Of a stretch of DNA of 64,000 nt, positions 47,054 through 50,781 are shown piece after piece. A model generated the notes under the pieces. That model did no database searches and was not told where the DNA came from. It saw only the letters and a list, made by a program, of their open reading frames with translations. The number at the start of each line of letters is the position of its first letter. Position 1 is the first letter of the stretch. Origin of the DNA: an uncultured Candidatus Saccharibacteria bacterium (lineage in GTDB: Bacteria; Patescibacteriota; Minisyncoccia; Phycocordibacterales; PALSA-1337); assembly GCA_964416985.1 (NCBI GenBank), contig CAYQFS010000003.1, positions 18,594 through 82,593 of the forward strand, read 5' to 3'. A program made the position numbers and the translations under genes.

Positions 47054-47105
47054 AATATGTCTATTTTCATCTTTAGTATGTGATATCCGGTGTGTATCAG
47101 ATTGT

Positions 47106-47135
47106 ATTAGATAGTATTAGATAGTATTAGATAGG
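47106..47135. repeat. Tandem repeat (tattagatag)x3
   Basis: Seen directly: gtattagatagtattagatagtattagatagg. Confidence 0.6.
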
Positions 47136-47333: not shown

Positions 47334-48056
47334 GTGACAACGATGAAAAATCCATCGATTGCATCAGACAACGAAGTCAGTGAAGGCCAAATCGAAACCT
47401 GTGTGACCCTAGTCACCGATGCTACGCGCAAAGGGACAGGCACAGCGCTTCGCGAACTCGCCAAGAACGGTGTTCTCACCAAAAAGAATATTGAGCGGGT
47501 GCGGGCGCGCGGCAACGAAGTGGTTGCTGAGATTACGAGAATCGTAAAGGAGAAGTTTGCCGAAATTGCCGAGAATATCGCCGGCATCGTCAAGCTCATC
47601 TCCGGCGCGGAAATTCTCGAACTCGACGAGACGGACGGGAAGGCAACCATTGCGAAAGCGAAGGATGCCTTTCCCGGCTGGATCGATCCCGACTTCAAGG
47701 AATACGGTTGCGATGTGAAGTCGGAGCCGACCAAGAAGGCACAGGTTTCCGTCCATGAGATGATCAAGGACGGGACATTCGCCCAGATCTTTAATGGCAT
47801 GGGCGATGACCTCAATAGTCTTTGTCTTACACAGCCGCAGATCATCCAATTCGTGGAGAAACACCACAAGTGGCTCCGCACGGATGGATATGCAACCTTT
47901 TTCTTATTCAAGGTTGGCGAAGAGTTCTTCGTTGCGGACGTGGGCTTCCACGTCGGGCGTCTCGAGGTCTACGTGCGCCGCTTCTCGAACGACTTCGTCT
48001 GGCGCGCCGAGGACCGTCATCGCATTGTAGTCCCGCAACTGGCACTTGCAAATTAG
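47334..48056 (+). CDS. DGR target (variable) protein; GC-rich; VR at the C-terminus
   Basis: The 3' approximately 117 bp is a mutated copy of the downstream template repeat (see VR/TR features). About 55% GC, against about 40% for neighbours. No recognisable C-type-lectin GGSW motif. Confidence 0.75.
   Translation: MTTMKNPSIASDNEVSEGQIETCVTLVTDATRKGTGTALRELAKNGVLTKKNIERVRARGNEVVAEITRIVKEKFAEIAENIAGIVKLISGAEILELDETDGKATIAKAKDAFPGWIDPDFKEYGCDVKSEPTKKAQVSVHEMIKDGTFAQIFNGMGDDLNSLCLTQPQIIQFVEKHHKWLRTDGYATFFLFKVGEEFFVADVGFHVGRLEVYVRRFSNDFVWRAEDRHRIVVPQLALAN
47925..48041 (+). repeat. DGR variable region (VR), including the 3' invariant IMH-like segment cgtcatcgcattgtagtcccg
   Basis: Aligns base for base with TR 48366..48482. 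All 20 mismatches in the alignment fall at positions that are A in the TR. Confidence 0.85.
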
Positions 48057-48080: not shown

Positions 48081-48365
48081 CTCTGACCCTTGTCAAAATT
48101 TATTTTGGCAAATCAGGGGGATTTTTGTATACTGGAAAGGCACGCATGAATGTACGGTGGCTATGGCTCCCGTGCCACGCTTGTGAAAAAATACGTTCGA
48201 GAATTCTGCCGCCCGCCAGCTGGCGGGTTGCAGAAGAGTGGATGTATTTTTATCTAAACAAAAAATAATCAGTTGGTGTAGTGGACTGGAGGACTTCAAT
48301 GTCCCGAATACTATTCAATCTGTCCTGATTGGGCGGATGGTGTACTGGATGGTTCGTTGCACATT

Positions 48366-48482
48366 ATCTTCGTTGCGAACGTGAACTTCAACGACGGGCA
48401 TCTCAAGGTCAACATGAACCGCTTCTCGAACGACAACGTCTGGAACGCCGAGAACCGTCATCGCATTGTAGTCCCGAAACTG
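48366..48482 (+). repeat. DGR template repeat (TR), non-coding, rich in AAC codons in the VR frame
   Basis: atcttcgttgcgAACgtgAACttcAACgacgggcatctcAAggtcAACatgAACcgcttctcgAACgacAACgtctggAACgccgagAACcgtcatcgcattgtagtcccg. 21-nt exact match to the VR at the 3' end. Confidence 0.85.
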
Positions 48483-48497
48483 TCATTTCTCTCATCA

Positions 48498-48866
48498 TTA
48501 TTTGGTGAGAGTTTTGTTGAGTATTGATTTAGCAGTGGGACTTTGGAGGCCTTTGCGCCATCCACCAAGCATTCGCCCTATCTCTTCTAGCTTTTCCGAG
48601 AGTTCTGTATATTTGTCAGTCGGAATGAGCTTGCTCTCCCAGGCTAGCTGATAAAAGAATTTAAGAGTGTCTACCTTCGTTATGGTCCGGCCGAGCATAA
48701 CAGTCTTGGCTTCTGGTGGCAGATAAATGCAAGAGAAACTGAATTCCAAAGTATCAAGAAATAAGTCTTCAATCTTCTGACCAATACCGAGACGTTCAAC
48801 GCGCGGAAAGTTCCTATGAATGGCTAACCAAAATTGGTATGCTTCCTTTTCCTTCAAAATCACCAC
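48498..48866 (-). CDS. avd: Avd-like accessory variability determinant (four-helix-bundle / 23S rRNA intervening-sequence protein family), GTG start, opposite strand to TR/RT
   Basis: 122 aa, with the ...FP..E..G...Q.... pattern; the C-terminal EEIGRMLGGWRKGL parallels Bordetella bAvd EVGRILGSWIARV. Located between the TR and the RT. Confidence 0.7.
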   Translation of the reverse strand: MVILKEKEAYQFWLAIHRNFPRVERLGIGQKIEDLFLDTLEFSFSCIYLPPEAKTVMLGRTITKVDTLKFFYQLAWESKLIPTDKYTELSEKLEEIGRMLGGWRKGLQSPTAKSILNKTLTK

Positions 48867-48877
48867 TGGAGAATTGC

Positions 48878-48887
48878 GGGGGGGGGG
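48878..48887. repeat. Homopolymeric G10 tract between the divergent avd start and the RT start (C10 in the avd 5'-UTR)
   Basis: gaattgcggggggggggtcgtc, seen directly. It lies inside the upstream extension of the RT ORF (which would read GGG) and 12 nt upstream of the avd GTG. Confidence 0.9.
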
Positions 48888-48910
48888 TCGTCATAGTCAT
48901 TTTAATTTTT

Positions 48911-49900
48911 GTGAAAAATAAAGGGGTTGCGTACAACCATATCATATCTCTCAAAAATATCCACGAAGCGTGGCGTGAATTTGTCTCTGGTAAAAAATAT
49001 AAAACCGATGTGGCAGAATTCCTGCTCAAACTCTCGGAGAATACTTATAAGCTTCACATTGATCTAAAAAATAAAATATATGTCCACGGACCGTACGAAG
49101 CCTTCGCGGTTAATGACCCAAAGCCGCGCAGTATCCATAAAGCGAGCGTGCGGGACCGTTTACTCCACCATGCTCTCTATCGCCAACTCTACCCTTATTT
49201 TGATCAGAAATTTATTCACGATTCCTATTCTTGCCGTGACTTCAAGGGGACGCATCGGGCATTGGAGCGCTTTATGCAATTTTCTTGCAAGGTTTCAAAG
49301 AGCAATAAACGCACTTGTTGGGTATTGAAATGTGATGTTCGTAAGTTCTTTGCTTCGGTGGATCATTCAGTTCTCATGACGATACTTAAAAAGCATATTT
49401 CTGATCCTGATATTATCAATCTTGTCGGTGGGGTAGTGGAGAGTTTTAAAAGTACTGGTCCGGGAAAGGGTTTGCCACTCGGTAATCTTACTTCGCAACT
49501 TCTGGTGAATGTTTATATGAATGAATTTGATCAATACGTAAAGCATATTCTCAAACAGAAGTTTTATATTCGCTATGCTGATGATTTTGTGATTATGCAT
49601 CATGACCGCATTACATTACTAGAAGTGTTACCGAAAATTCATGCTTTTCTTGGATCGGTCCTTAAACTACAGCTTCATCCCGATAAGGTTTCTATCGAGA
49701 CAGTTTCTTCTGGCATTGATTTTCTTGGCTGGATCCATTTTCCTAATCACCGTGTGTTGCGGACCACCACAAAAAGAAGAATGTTCAAGAATTTAAAAAT
49801 GACAGAGACAAAACGTGAGACACTTCAATCGTATCTTGGACTTTTAAAACACGGCAATACCCATAAGTTACAAAACTCAATAAATAAATTTAAGACATAA
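48911..49900 (+). CDS. DGR-type reverse transcriptase (track ORF 48839..49900; probable start GTG at 48911, downstream of the G-tract)
   Basis: RT motifs 1-7, including NIHEAWREF, the DGR-type GKGLPLGNLTSQLLVNVYMNEFD and IRYADDFVI (YxDD), around 330-353 aa. No maturase or endonuclease domain, so not group II. Confidence 0.9.
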   Translation: MKNKGVAYNHIISLKNIHEAWREFVSGKKYKTDVAEFLLKLSENTYKLHIDLKNKIYVHGPYEAFAVNDPKPRSIHKASVRDRLLHHALYRQLYPYFDQKFIHDSYSCRDFKGTHRALERFMQFSCKVSKSNKRTCWVLKCDVRKFFASVDHSVLMTILKKHISDPDIINLVGGVVESFKSTGPGKGLPLGNLTSQLLVNVYMNEFDQYVKHILKQKFYIRYADDFVIMHHDRITLLEVLPKIHAFLGSVLKLQLHPDKVSIETVSSGIDFLGWIHFPNHRVLRTTTKRRMFKNLKMTETKRETLQSYLGLLKHGNTHKLQNSINKFKT

Positions 49901-49953: not shown

Positions 49954-50781
49954 ATGCCACAAGAAATTACTATCACTGCTCCCCATAAAGATTTCGAATC
50001 AATCAAAAAGATTGATGAGAATGGCGTGGAATACTGGACAGCAAGGGAGCTTATGCCAATACTTGGGTATTCAAAGTGGCAGAATTTTGAAATAGTCATA
50101 AAAAAGGCTCAAGAAGCTTGCGTCAATAGCCGCCAGTTTCCCCAGGATCATTTTACTGAAGCCAGTAAATTGATCAAAATGGCTAAAGATGCTGTGCGTG
50201 AAATAAACGACTATAACCTTGATAGGTATGCCTGTTATTTAATTGCCCAAAACGGAGACTCTACTAAGAAAGAAATTGCCCTTGCCCAAACATATTTTGC
50301 GGTACAAACGCGTAACCAGGAGATGTTTAATAAACTTTCTGATGATGAGAAAAGAATACAAAGACGAGAGGAAGTAACTGACAGAAATAAACATCTTTTC
50401 AGTACGGCCAAACTTGCAGGCGTCTCAAATTTTGGAAAATTCAATGATGCAGGGTATAAAGGCCTCTATACCATGCCTCTTTCTGAAATTGAGAAGAGAA
50501 AGAAGGTAAAGAAAGGAGAATTACTCGATCGTGCAGGAAGTGTAGAACTTGGAGCCAATCTTTTTAGAATTACCCAGACAGAAGACAAAATCAAGAGAGA
50601 AAATATAAAAGGAGATACAGAAGCACAAAGAACACACTTTGATGTTGGAAAGAAAGTTCGTCAGACAATGAAAGAACTTGGCGGGGAAATGCCAGAAAAT
50701 CTCAAACCAGAAAGGCATATAAAGGAAATTAGGAAGAATAACAGATTCCTCAAAAAGAAATCACAAGCGAGAATAAAATAG
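49954..50781 (+). CDS. dinD: DinD-like protein (DNA-damage-inducible protein D family)
   Basis: GVEYWTARELMPILGYSKWQNFEIVIKKAQEAC and LDRYACYLIAQNGD closely parallel E. coli DinD segments (..WSARDL..LGY..W.NF...I.KA; LTRYACYLIVQN). Confidence 0.6.
   Translation: MPQEITITAPHKDFESIKKIDENGVEYWTARELMPILGYSKWQNFEIVIKKAQEACVNSRQFPQDHFTEASKLIKMAKDAVREINDYNLDRYACYLIAQNGDSTKKEIALAQTYFAVQTRNQEMFNKLSDDEKRIQRREEVTDRNKHLFSTAKLAGVSNFGKFNDAGYKGLYTMPLSEIEKRKKVKKGELLDRAGSVELGANLFRITQTEDKIKRENIKGDTEAQRTHFDVGKKVRQTMKELGGEMPENLKPERHIKEIRKNNRFLKKKSQARIK

Follow-up and report, generated by a model that had tools for sequence, protein, structure and literature searches.

Contingency loci are best known from host-adapted pathogens, and the closest described counterparts of the locus examined here are genes of Neisseria, Haemophilus and Campylobacter that carry a homopolymer inside the open reading frame (ORF), such as lgtA/C/D, pgtA, hmbR and the Campylobacter capsule and LOS genes. 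The locus lies in a 64,000-nt stretch of DNA that was analysed as a whole (hereafter the window), and the gene concerned is avd, part of a diversity-generating retroelement (DGR). Like the pathogen genes, avd has an uninterrupted G/C run of the ~8-14 nt class within the first codons of its ORF, and the length of that run differs between otherwise identical strains. As in those genes, a change of one nucleotide in either direction toggles between a full-length and a truncated product (here in silico), and repeat units that are not a multiple of three appear to have been selected. In contrast to them, avd encodes an accessory of mutagenesis by a reverse transcriptase (RT) and not a surface antigen or a modification enzyme, i.e. 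one hypermutable site gates another. Its hosts are free-living or episymbiotic Patescibacteria of groundwater and freshwater rather than host-adapted pathogens, and its repeat type turns over (G, GA, GT, CT and 7-mers) at one homologous position.

Two further kinds of switch invite comparison. Phasevarions (phase-variable DNA methyltransferases) and repeat-switchable mutator genes also have a simple-sequence repeat (SSR) inside an ORF and exert a second-order control of diversity, since the switched product changes many downstream phenotypes or raises variability; however, they act by global methylation or by a genome-wide change of mutation rate, whereas the avd tract would affect targeted hypermutation of a single region of ~120 nt in a single gene. 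The (TA)n repeat of Haemophilus influenzae hifA/hifB likewise sits at the junction of two cooperating divergent genes, but it lies between -35 and -10 and acts on the transcription of both, whereas the avd tract is inside one ORF and acts on its reading frame, any effect on RT transcription being hypothetical.

Among DGRs the prototype is that of Bordetella phage BPP-1 (mtd-avd-TR-brt), where Avd is required for cDNA synthesis by the DGR reverse transcriptase, a requirement that to our knowledge is known only from DGRs of the BPP-1 type. The window locus shares with it the RT, an Avd of the bAvd fold, an adenine-specific pair of template repeat (TR) and variable repeat (VR), the position of the VR at the C-terminus of the target gene and evidence of ongoing diversification. 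Unlike in BPP-1, avd is inverted and stands head-to-head with the RT gene, their start codons being 10 nt apart; the TR is placed upstream of avd, apparently with its own promoter and terminator; and there is an SSR in the 5' end of avd. We know of no SSR described in BPP-1 avd and a literature search found no such description, nor did it find any report of a DGR or an avd gene with a repeat tract, phase variation or frameshift switching.

The locus is an active DGR, in which the target gene with its VR and the TR are followed by avd on the minus strand and the RT gene on the plus strand. The target gene (47334-48056, plus strand, 240 aa) has no Pfam match, and the VR at its 3' end (47926-48047) was delimited by repeat comparison with the TR (48367-48488, plus strand), a 122-nt repeat that is 84% identical to it; 17 of the 19 mismatches between the two fall at TR adenines. 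Consensus matches place a promoter-like site upstream of the TR (TTGGCA-17-TATACT, 48105-48133, plus strand), possibly the promoter of a TR RNA, and a terminator-like hairpin with a T-run directly after it (48489-48511, plus strand), where it overlaps the avd stop codon. The position of this hairpin suggests that the TR RNA is a transcript separate from the RT mRNA and makes a TR-RT co-transcript running antisense through avd less probable. The part of avd downstream of the tract (48498-48877, minus strand) matches the bAvd four-helix-bundle family (Pfam PF22296, E-value 2.3e-10, 41.4 bits against a cutoff of 40), and homologues 95% identical to it are annotated as four-helix-bundle proteins. 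The RT (48911-49900, plus strand, 329 aa, GTG start) matches RVT_1 (E-value 1.8e-24), and its homologues in DGR loci of Patescibacteria, with identities of up to 90%, number in the thousands; an independent contig yields exactly the same 329-aa product. The divergent avd ATG and the start of the RT are separated by an AT-rich spacer of 10 nt, TTTAATTTTT (48901-48910), with no Shine-Dalgarno sequence on either side, and two relatives (L166 and L167) share this head-to-head arrangement with a spacing of 10-11 nt. A contig of the same strain (L003) is identical to the window over 2,711 nt except for 15 positions, all of them in the VR and all at TR adenines; since the differences are confined in this way, the element must be active and its diversification ongoing. 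Thus an RT, a TR/VR pair, Avd and continuing adenine-directed diversification of the VR are all present.

At the junction of avd and the RT gene, a run of exactly ten G occupies 48878-48887, between a C (48877) and a T (48888); on the avd strand it is C10 and is read as proline codons at the 5' end of the ORF. The first-pass annotation had given the same coordinates and had argued that a homopolymer of 10 nt is not expected by chance, and both statements are confirmed: G10 is the only G/C run longer than six in the 64,000 nt (42.3% GC), and under an i.i.d. model 0.02 runs of at least ten would be expected per window. Runs of at least six are under-represented (six observed, namely G10 and five of length 6, versus 9.4 expected under the same model), and chance or base composition is ruled out as the origin of the tract. 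Moreover, CCC is the rarest proline codon of the source genome (13.8%), and the pure C run therefore points to selection at the level of nucleotides.

What such a run does depends on where avd translation starts. The mechanically called ORF opens at GTG 48866, 11 nt from G10, and on that basis the tract had been seen as an untranslated element replacing the avd Shine-Dalgarno sequence, in which a change of one nucleotide would alter initiation spacing. The comparison with relatives does not bear this out. The codon at 48866 is GTA or ATC in related loci, and GTG 48866 is therefore most likely an internal valine codon. Upstream, the avd frame is open back into the tract with no stop codon (PPPRNSPVVILKEKEAY), and on the far side of the tract there are two ATG codons in phase with each other (48900-48898 and 48894-48892, minus strand), either of which we infer to be the start, giving M-T-M-T-T-Pro(n). 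The tract would be read as Pro-Pro(-Pro), followed by the conserved Avd N-terminus ...P-V-V-I-L-K-E-K-E-A-Y; the uninterrupted C10 thus lies between the putative start (48894 or 48900) and that N-terminus, and is above the instability threshold of contingency loci. In line with such a start, 68 of 120 Avd homologues in the database are called from an ATG with the pattern M-x(1-5)-PP(P)-...-P-x-V-I-L-K and align to the N-terminus inferred here, and the hypothetical C9 product of the window aligns with them over its full length. ATG ACy ATT AAr followed by C9 is also what the two in-frame relatives closest to the window read.

Since the tract is inside the ORF, its length sets the reading frame. 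Translated in silico from the upstream ATGs, Avd is full-length (131-134 aa) when the tract is C9 or C12, whereas C10 runs into a stop after 26-28 aa and C11 after 11-13 aa. The window allele, C10, is accordingly predicted to be Avd-OFF, one slip away from ON, and its predicted product is an out-of-frame peptide of 28 (or 26) aa, MTMTTPPPQFSSGDFEGKGSIPILVSHS (48814-48900, minus strand), which corresponds to the 3' part of a minus-strand ORF at 48814-49029.

G10 also falls within an ORF that runs from ATG 48839 into the RT gene, and the RT had been suggested to start there, reading the tract as glycines. This extension is ruled out: the N-terminus of 20 of the 20 closest RT homologues is MKNKGVAY or nearly so, matching a start at GTG 48911, and the extension is closed by a stop codon both in a relative (L005) and in a G11 allele of the same strain. 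The RT thus starts at GTG 48911, downstream of the tract, and its ORF in the window locus is therefore independent of tract length.

The RT extension was one part of a wider proposal, in which the tract is an untranslated element of a control region shared by the divergent genes and its length alters promoter or Shine-Dalgarno spacing for avd, and RT expression through either the extension or a -35 region. The tract does lie 24-33 nt upstream of the RT start, where the -35 of a promoter with a short leader would be; in one subclade (L038, L056, L062, L147 and L163) the RT has no canonical start downstream and apparently reads the tract as glycine; and in loci of the L007 type the gap between tract and RT ATG is 4 nt, which puts the tract in a Shine-Dalgarno position and fits mimicry of such a sequence by poly-G. 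In the window and its nearest relatives that mimicry fails, since the gap is 20-24 nt, and the in-frame stops of L005 and the replacement of poly-G by other repeat types speak further against it. A scan for consensus promoter hexamers gave no hit around the tract, although promoter types of Patescibacteria are poorly known, and homologous repeats that reach 32 nt in relatives do not fit a promoter spacer of 16-18 nt, as would be needed for switches of the porA/opc/fim/hif type. Together with translation of Avd homologues through the tract, and with a distance from tract to gene that is fixed for avd and variable for the RT (see below), this makes regulation by spacing improbable, and its RT-extension part is largely refuted.

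The tract is not peculiar to the window strain. Runs of G7-G14, with a mode of 10, occupy the avd/RT junction in 119 related Patescibacteria DGR loci (RT 54-86% identical). Across these loci, 853,579 nt in total, the junction holds 119 G/C runs of at least eight, versus four elsewhere. In 53 of 98 distinct loci the tract lies 13-15 nt upstream of the valine codon of P-x-V-I-L-K, whereas anything from 28 to 86 nt separates it from the RT N-terminus, and in 29 of the 98 no canonical avd start is in frame on either side of it; hence the tract is tied to avd and not to the RT. Relatives without poly-G have (GA)6-14, (GT)8-16, (CT)11 or (GCTGATT)3/(GGGTGTT)3 at the same position, units of 1, 2 and 7 nt all of which shift the frame. 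Because such different repeats occupy the same spot, what is conserved is the instability of the repeat and not the chemistry of G, and a G-quadruplex or a protein-binding site is ruled out as a general explanation. Viral contigs yielded only two distant RT relatives (34-36% identity), both without a repeat.

These observations also bear on whether the tract has a function at all: it might instead have arisen in sequencing or assembly, or be the frameshift of an avd gene that is decaying into a pseudogene. Illumina platforms are prone to errors in poly-G, the tract is a break point of several contigs and shows aberrant poly-C in two, and the window avd is indeed frameshifted relative to its ATG. 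Yet ~120 loci, which stem from many studies and assemblers and one of which belongs to a complete genome, share the tract at this position, and this conservation together with the 119-to-4 specificity for the junction rules out an assembly artefact. Decay of avd is hard to reconcile with the high conservation of the Avd sequence downstream of the tract, with the replacement of the homopolymer by other repeats and with DGR activity in the window strain and several others. We regard an absence of function as very improbable.

A contingency switch should leave strains that differ in little else but tract length, and such strains exist. In the window strain the tract is G10 in the window and in L003 (SRR13287419) and G11 in L001 (SRR13287412), the flanks being otherwise identical. 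Elsewhere, too, strains with 99.6-100% identity over the rest of the locus are set apart by tract length and the VR alone; one pair is the complete genome of Wolfebacteria GW2011_GWB1_47_1 (L045, G14, OFF) and L148 (G9, ON), with no mismatch in 6,963 nt and the tract as the sole difference. Further near-identical ON/OFF pairs are L127/L135, L145/L146 and L049/L157, and a dinucleotide repeat gives an ON/OFF pair as well, (TC)6 in L065 being OFF and (TC)7 in L067 being ON. Beyond the G10/G11 and G14/G9 cases there are about ten further sets with repeat-number polymorphism, and in several pairs the only other differences cluster in the ~100-nt VR. Full-length and shortened products (in silico) are therefore found as natural ON/OFF pairs. 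Illumina sequencing may miscount a run of G10 or more by one nucleotide, but this error is insufficient as an explanation because differences of 2, 3 and 5 nt and differences in dinucleotide repeats also occur. Exact-protein look-ups with the GTG-start Avd and with ArgRS gave no match, and the contig matched in a look-up with the Bro-N protein was too short to span the tract. The idea of a slipped-strand on/off switch at this junction, raised in the first-pass annotation, thus gains strong comparative support from the strain differences and the substitute repeats.

Taking the sequence comparisons together, we propose, with a probability of about 0.72, that the tract is a contingency switch on Avd and thereby on DGR mutagenesis. 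Translation of avd would begin at an ATG upstream of the C tract, with the tract forming proline codons and setting the frame; slipped-strand mispairing at replication would often change its length, and each population would hold both Avd-ON and Avd-OFF cells. If Avd is needed for cDNA synthesis by the RT, as in BPP-1, then adenine-mutagenic rewriting of the VR would become a stochastically switched activity, ON cells diversifying the VR and OFF cells inheriting a given VR stably. The anatomy of the locus, the frame logic, the conservation of the tract, its length polymorphism, the turnover of repeat types and the activity of the DGR are observed here, whereas we infer the rate and reversibility of switching, that cells in the OFF state lack Avd, and that retrohoming in this clade depends on it. 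Replication slippage probably switches DGRs on and off in a large group of Patescibacteria. We lean, with less confidence than for the window locus, towards a whole clade of Patescibacteria DGRs with a built-in SSR in the first avd codons, usually poly-C/G and apparently replaced repeatedly by GA, GT, CT or 7-mer repeats, that would act as a stochastic on/off switch of targeted retro-mutagenesis. In the classification of Roux et al. 2021 (PMC8144416) these elements probably correspond to 'DGR clade 2', which is confined to the CPR.

One may also consider that the frame is corrected at the level of RNA. The C run could be slippery for RNA polymerase or for the ribosome (transcriptional slippage, or a +1/-1 shift of tRNA-Pro on CCC-C aided by stalling at poly-proline), every allele would then yield some Avd, and the tract would serve as an attenuator or rheostat that keeps Avd low, a role compatible with DNA-level switching. 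All three assemblies of the window strain (G10, G10 and G11) are predicted to be OFF, yet the VR has diversified between samples, so ON cells may form a minority, or else OFF alleles still give some Avd, for which internal initiation at GTG 48866, RNA-polymerase slippage and ribosomal frameshifting on the C run are possible routes. Among 85 long-tract loci the frame offsets 0, +1 and -1 occur in 24, 40 and 21, and the commonest is the one that needs a +1 ribosomal shift or an mRNA shorter by 1 nt; this skew (chi-square p = 0.025) is weakened by phylogenetic non-independence. In addition, a perfect, covarying hairpin of 8-12 bp abuts the tract in about 20 of 101 loci, and in known systems a hairpin abutting a slippery run stimulates slippage or frameshifting. 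With ~20% of loci, and with the window showing no significant structure beside its tract (z = +1.47), hairpin and G run are ruled out as a universal RNA element, whether an odd terminator or a slippage stimulator. Unlike genes with programmed frameshifts, avd has no fixed offset, all three being present and in-frame alleles being common (68 of the 120 called homologues are in frame), and the (GA)n, (GT)n and 7-mer repeats that replace the homopolymer are not ribosomal slippery sites. We therefore consider RNA-level recoding unlikely, though less so than regulation by spacing.

The distribution of frames is informative for DNA-level switching as well. In-frame alleles are not enriched among long tracts, their share being about one third (24/85), which fits free switching but fits equally well a frame that is irrelevant. 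Of the 8 loci whose tract has decayed to at most six nucleotides, 6 have the upstream ATG in frame, compared with 24 of the 85 with long tracts (Fisher p = 0.013), a difference that supports a start upstream of the tract.

The question at stake is how DGRs are regulated, and how their hosts avoid overwriting a VR variant that works. A switch of the kind proposed would be a simple, heritable answer, in which a minority of cells diversify and the result is locked in the rest: a two-tier hypermutation, with a ligand-binding protein diversified in a few cells and a successful variant frozen by a slip to OFF. Among cellular DGRs of the candidate phyla radiation it would be the first regulatory mechanism to be described, and it would extend contingency loci to ultra-small environmental bacteria. 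It would also mean that mutability itself is selected, as the repeat type changes while its position is kept; that di- and heptanucleotide repeats take the place of poly-G at a single homologous site would be unusually clean evidence for this. A practical consequence is that automated annotation of this clade systematically gives avd a wrong start or cuts it short, as in the GTG-start ORF of the window and in the 122-aa NCBI call in its nearest relative. Assemblies, too, tend to break at the avd tract, and several contigs end inside it.

The ten consecutive G residues at 48878-48887, bordered by C and T in the window sequence, form the only G/C run to exceed a length of 6 anywhere in the 64 kb of the window (GC content 42.3%), where an i.i.d. 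model predicts 0.02 G/C runs of at least 10 and such runs are, if anything, under-represented; the first-pass annotation was therefore right that this run is not expected by chance. Between argS and ileS, the tract is part of a diversity-generating retroelement (DGR) that is complete and matched every testable defining DGR feature. The target gene (47334-48056) carries the variable repeat (VR, 47926-48047) at its C-terminus, and the template repeat (TR, 48367-48488) is 84% identical to VR, with 17 of 19 mismatches at TR adenines. There follow a bAvd-family gene (avd, minus strand, 48498-48866 when called mechanically from a GTG) and an RVT_1 reverse transcriptase gene (RT, plus strand, ending at 49900). 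A sigma-70-like promoter-like site (plus strand, 48105-48133, 10/12 match, about 230 nt 5' of TR) and a terminator-like hairpin with a T-run (plus strand, 48489-48511, directly 3' of TR and overlapping the avd stop codon), both consensus matches only, flank TR and point to a short RNA transcribed from TR on its own, convergent with avd. Such a putative separate RNA would differ from the avd-TR-brt co-transcript of BPP-1. A consensus promoter scan of the window gave no support for the tract as a promoter spacer.

Protein-guided scans yielded 160 related loci (L-numbers below; RT identity 54-86%), nearly all of which stem from MAGs of Patescibacteria (CPR) or from metagenomes of aquatic, groundwater and peat habitats, and avd was divergent from RT in every locus where the junction is present. 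A single G run of 7-14 on the RT-sense strand separates the two genes in 119 loci (101 distinct flanks), with lengths of 7 (4 loci), 8 (9), 9 (37), 10 (44), 11 (18), 12 (4), 13 (2) and 14 (1). Across 853,579 nt of related loci, 119 G/C runs of at least 8 fell at the junction vs four elsewhere. Conservation of the tract extends across a large DGR clade. The four off-junction runs (L027:41, G8; L029:2169, C8; L040:387, G8; L138:6601, G9) may point to further phase-variable genes or to second DGR cassettes. Assemblies also tend to break or flip strand at the tract: contigs end inside the G run in L013, L014, L129 and L140, and C14 or C16 replaces the expected poly-G at the contig ends of L012 (1-40) and L103 (1-25).

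The position of the tract is locked to avd: 13-15 nt (mode 14) separate its end from the Val codon of the Avd N-terminal motif P-x-V-I-L-K in 53 of 98 distinct loci, while anything from 28 to 86 nt lies between it and the conserved RT N-terminus. Read in frame with avd, the tract encodes prolines, and this frame is open across it in 116/116 loci. Since this genome uses CCC least of all proline codons (13.8%), the pure C run is a nucleotide-level rather than an amino-acid feature. No canonical in-frame avd start exists on either side of the tract in 29/98 loci. A conserved CAT just downstream of it (plus strand) reads as ATG on the avd strand. This ATG is probably the real avd start, which would place the tract inside the ORF, because homologue N-termini, the alignment of a C9 product, the DNA of relatives and the frames of decayed tracts all point to it. 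In the protein database, 68 of 120 Avd homologues have a called ATG start and follow the pattern M-x(1-5)-PP(P)-x(2-5)-P-x-V-I-L-K (e.g. MTIKSPPQRSPVVILK, MTIKTPPRQFPAVILK, MLPPPREAPKVLLK), the others being shortened calls such as MVILKEKE or LKEKEAY; the hypothetical C9 product of the window, MTMTTPPRNSPVVILKEKEAY..., aligns end to end with the ATG-called proteins. The two closest in-frame relatives read ATG ACC ATT AAA T-C9 (database homologue P0122, locus L166) and ATG ACT ATT AAG A-C9 (P0123, L167), with only 10-11 nt between the avd ATG and the divergent RT ATG. An upstream ATG is in the avd frame in 6/8 loci with a decayed tract (6 or shorter) vs 24/85 with long tracts (Fisher p = 0.013), in-frame decayed examples being MPPAGRLPILE (L144), MEHKNFYIASDRETPRVLIK (L121) and MNTQQATTPRELPGVILK (L081). 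The earlier proposal of an untranslated leader, in which the tract replaces the Shine-Dalgarno sequence of an avd starting at GTG 48866, does not hold: read from the upstream ATG that GTG is a Val codon, and relatives have GTA or ATC there. Systematic mis-annotation of avd in this clade is explained by the tract. The spacer between the divergent starts (window 48901-48910; L166 169-178; L167 452-462) is AT-rich, only 10-11 nt long and free of a Shine-Dalgarno sequence on either side, which suggests that the mRNAs are leaderless or that each promoter lies within the coding region of the opposite gene.

Of the two RT start codons weighed in the first-pass annotation, ATG 48839 and GTG 48911, homologue N-termini point to the latter: the 20 closest RT homologues all begin with MKNKGVAY or a close variant, corresponding to GTG 48911. 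The extension from ATG 48839, which would have read through the tract, meets a stop codon both in L005 and in the G11 allele, and the RT ORF of the window is not affected by tract length. In one subclade (L038, L046, L056, L062, L074, L147, L163) the conserved RT N-terminus lies only ~11-20 nt past the tract, there is no canonical RT start downstream of it, and the RT frame gives the tract as Gly-Gly-Gly, in some loci from an upstream GTG or ATG. In L038, L056, L062, L147 and L163 the tract seems to be part of the RT ORF itself, and one repeat may thus fix the reading frames of the two divergent genes together in this subclade.

Computed from the ATG at 48900-48898 or 48894-48892 (minus strand), C9 gives an Avd of 133/131 aa and C12 one of 134/132 aa, C10 (window and L003) a 28/26-aa peptide and C11 (L001) a 13/11-aa peptide; the window allele is thus predicted to be OFF. 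L003 and L001 are short, independent assemblies of the same strain found by exact-protein look-ups (three sequencing runs). The former (SRR13287419, 2,711 nt) has G10 and 15 differences from the window, all at TR-adenine sites of VR; the latter (SRR13287412, 1,593 nt) has G11 and is otherwise identical. The DGR is active in this strain, and tract length is variable there. L001 starts at window position 48713, and L003, a Logan contig, starts 3 nt inside VR (L003 1-2 vs window 47929), which is consistent with assembly-graph breaks from VR heterogeneity in the sample. Similarly, the complete genome of Candidatus Wolfebacteria GW2011_GWB1_47_1 (L045) matches metagenome contig L148 over 6,963 nt with 0 mismatches; the only difference is G14 (predicted OFF) vs G9 (predicted ON). 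Further predicted ON/OFF pairs are L127/L135, L145/L146 and L049/L157, and in L049/L157, L145/L146, L065/L067 and L022/L112 the remaining differences cluster in one block of ~70-100 nt, the VR. Near-identical strains differ only at two hypermutable sites, the tract and VR.

Where the G run is missing, its exact position is taken by a different simple-sequence repeat: (GA)~14 in L084, whose RT is 81% identical to that of the window, (GA)6-9 in L064, L065, L067 and L154, (GT)8-16 in L057, L075 and L125, (CT)11 in L117, (GCTGATT)3 in L024 and (GGGTGTT)3 in L116. Unit lengths of 1, 2 and 7 each shift the reading frame; relative to the upstream ATG four of these loci are in frame and six out of frame, and with identical flanks (TC)6 in L065 gives MRKPVSLSR-stop and (TC)7 in L067 gives MRKPVSLSLDSASILSRVKEGY.... 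Because other repeats take the exact place of the tract, the conserved trait is the instability of the site rather than any chemistry particular to G, which makes the locus a clean example of selection for mutability.

The best-supported reading is an in-ORF contingency switch of the classic type, on a new kind of gene, with the same anatomy as the homopolymer contingency genes of Neisseria, Haemophilus and Campylobacter. Slipped-strand mispairing would alter C-tract length and with it the avd frame, so that cells would alternate between full-length Avd and a short peptide. In BPP-1, Avd is required for cDNA synthesis; if the same applies here, DGR mutagenesis itself would be phase-variable. 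The core of the on/off switch first suggested from the sequence is supported by the length polymorphism, repeat turnover and predicted ON/OFF pairs, but its mechanics are not: the frame would shift, rather than initiation spacing or an RT extension. All three assemblies of the window's strain are predicted OFF, yet VR is diversified: either ON cells form only a minority, or OFF alleles are leaky, with initiation at the internal GTG, slippage of RNA polymerase or frameshifting by tRNA-Pro along the C run as conceivable routes. An RNA-level contribution to the Avd frame, by slippage or frameshifting at the C run, is compatible with an excess of alleles needing a +1 shift (40/85) and with a perfect covarying hairpin that adjoins the tract in about 20% of loci, although no hairpin was found next to the tract in the window, the frame offset between tract sides is not fixed among loci, and ribosomal slippage would not be expected at di- and heptanucleotide repeats.

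For the contingency switch, what is new is the combination: a simple-sequence repeat that would gate a DGR accessory gene, is conserved throughout a CPR-wide clade and turns over in type. Full-text searches turned up no report linking DGRs or avd to homopolymers, phase variation, frameshifts, slipped-strand mispairing or simple sequence repeats; the large DGR surveys of Wu et al. 2018 (PMC5758913) and Roux et al. 2021 (PMC8144416) do not mention an avd repeat, the latter defining a DGR clade 2 restricted to Patescibacteria. The avd tract offers a concrete, testable regulatory mechanism for DGRs.

The hairpin, of 8-12 bp, occurs in ~20/101 loci (e.g. L007, L008, L022, L026, L045, L080, L118, L127, L141, L163), where it directly precedes the G run on the RT-sense strand, with stems GAGAATTACC/GGTAATTCTC, GAGAAGCACC/GGTGCTTCTC, GATCAATAATG/CATTATTGATC, GCTAATAATT/AATTATTAGC and AAAAGTACC/GGTACTTTT. 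Its 3' arm encodes the Avd V-I-L codons, and its possible roles are to promote slippage or frameshifting or to protect the avd 5' end. Elsewhere around the cassette, a 10-nt unit (GTATTAGATA/GTATCAGATT) is repeated in tandem about four times at 47094-47133, between argS and the target gene, and may serve as a regulatory site or form a second repeat of variable length, and a Bro-N (BRO family N-terminal domain) protein gene (49954-50781, plus strand), directly 3' of RT and before ileS, hints at mobile or phage-derived surroundings.
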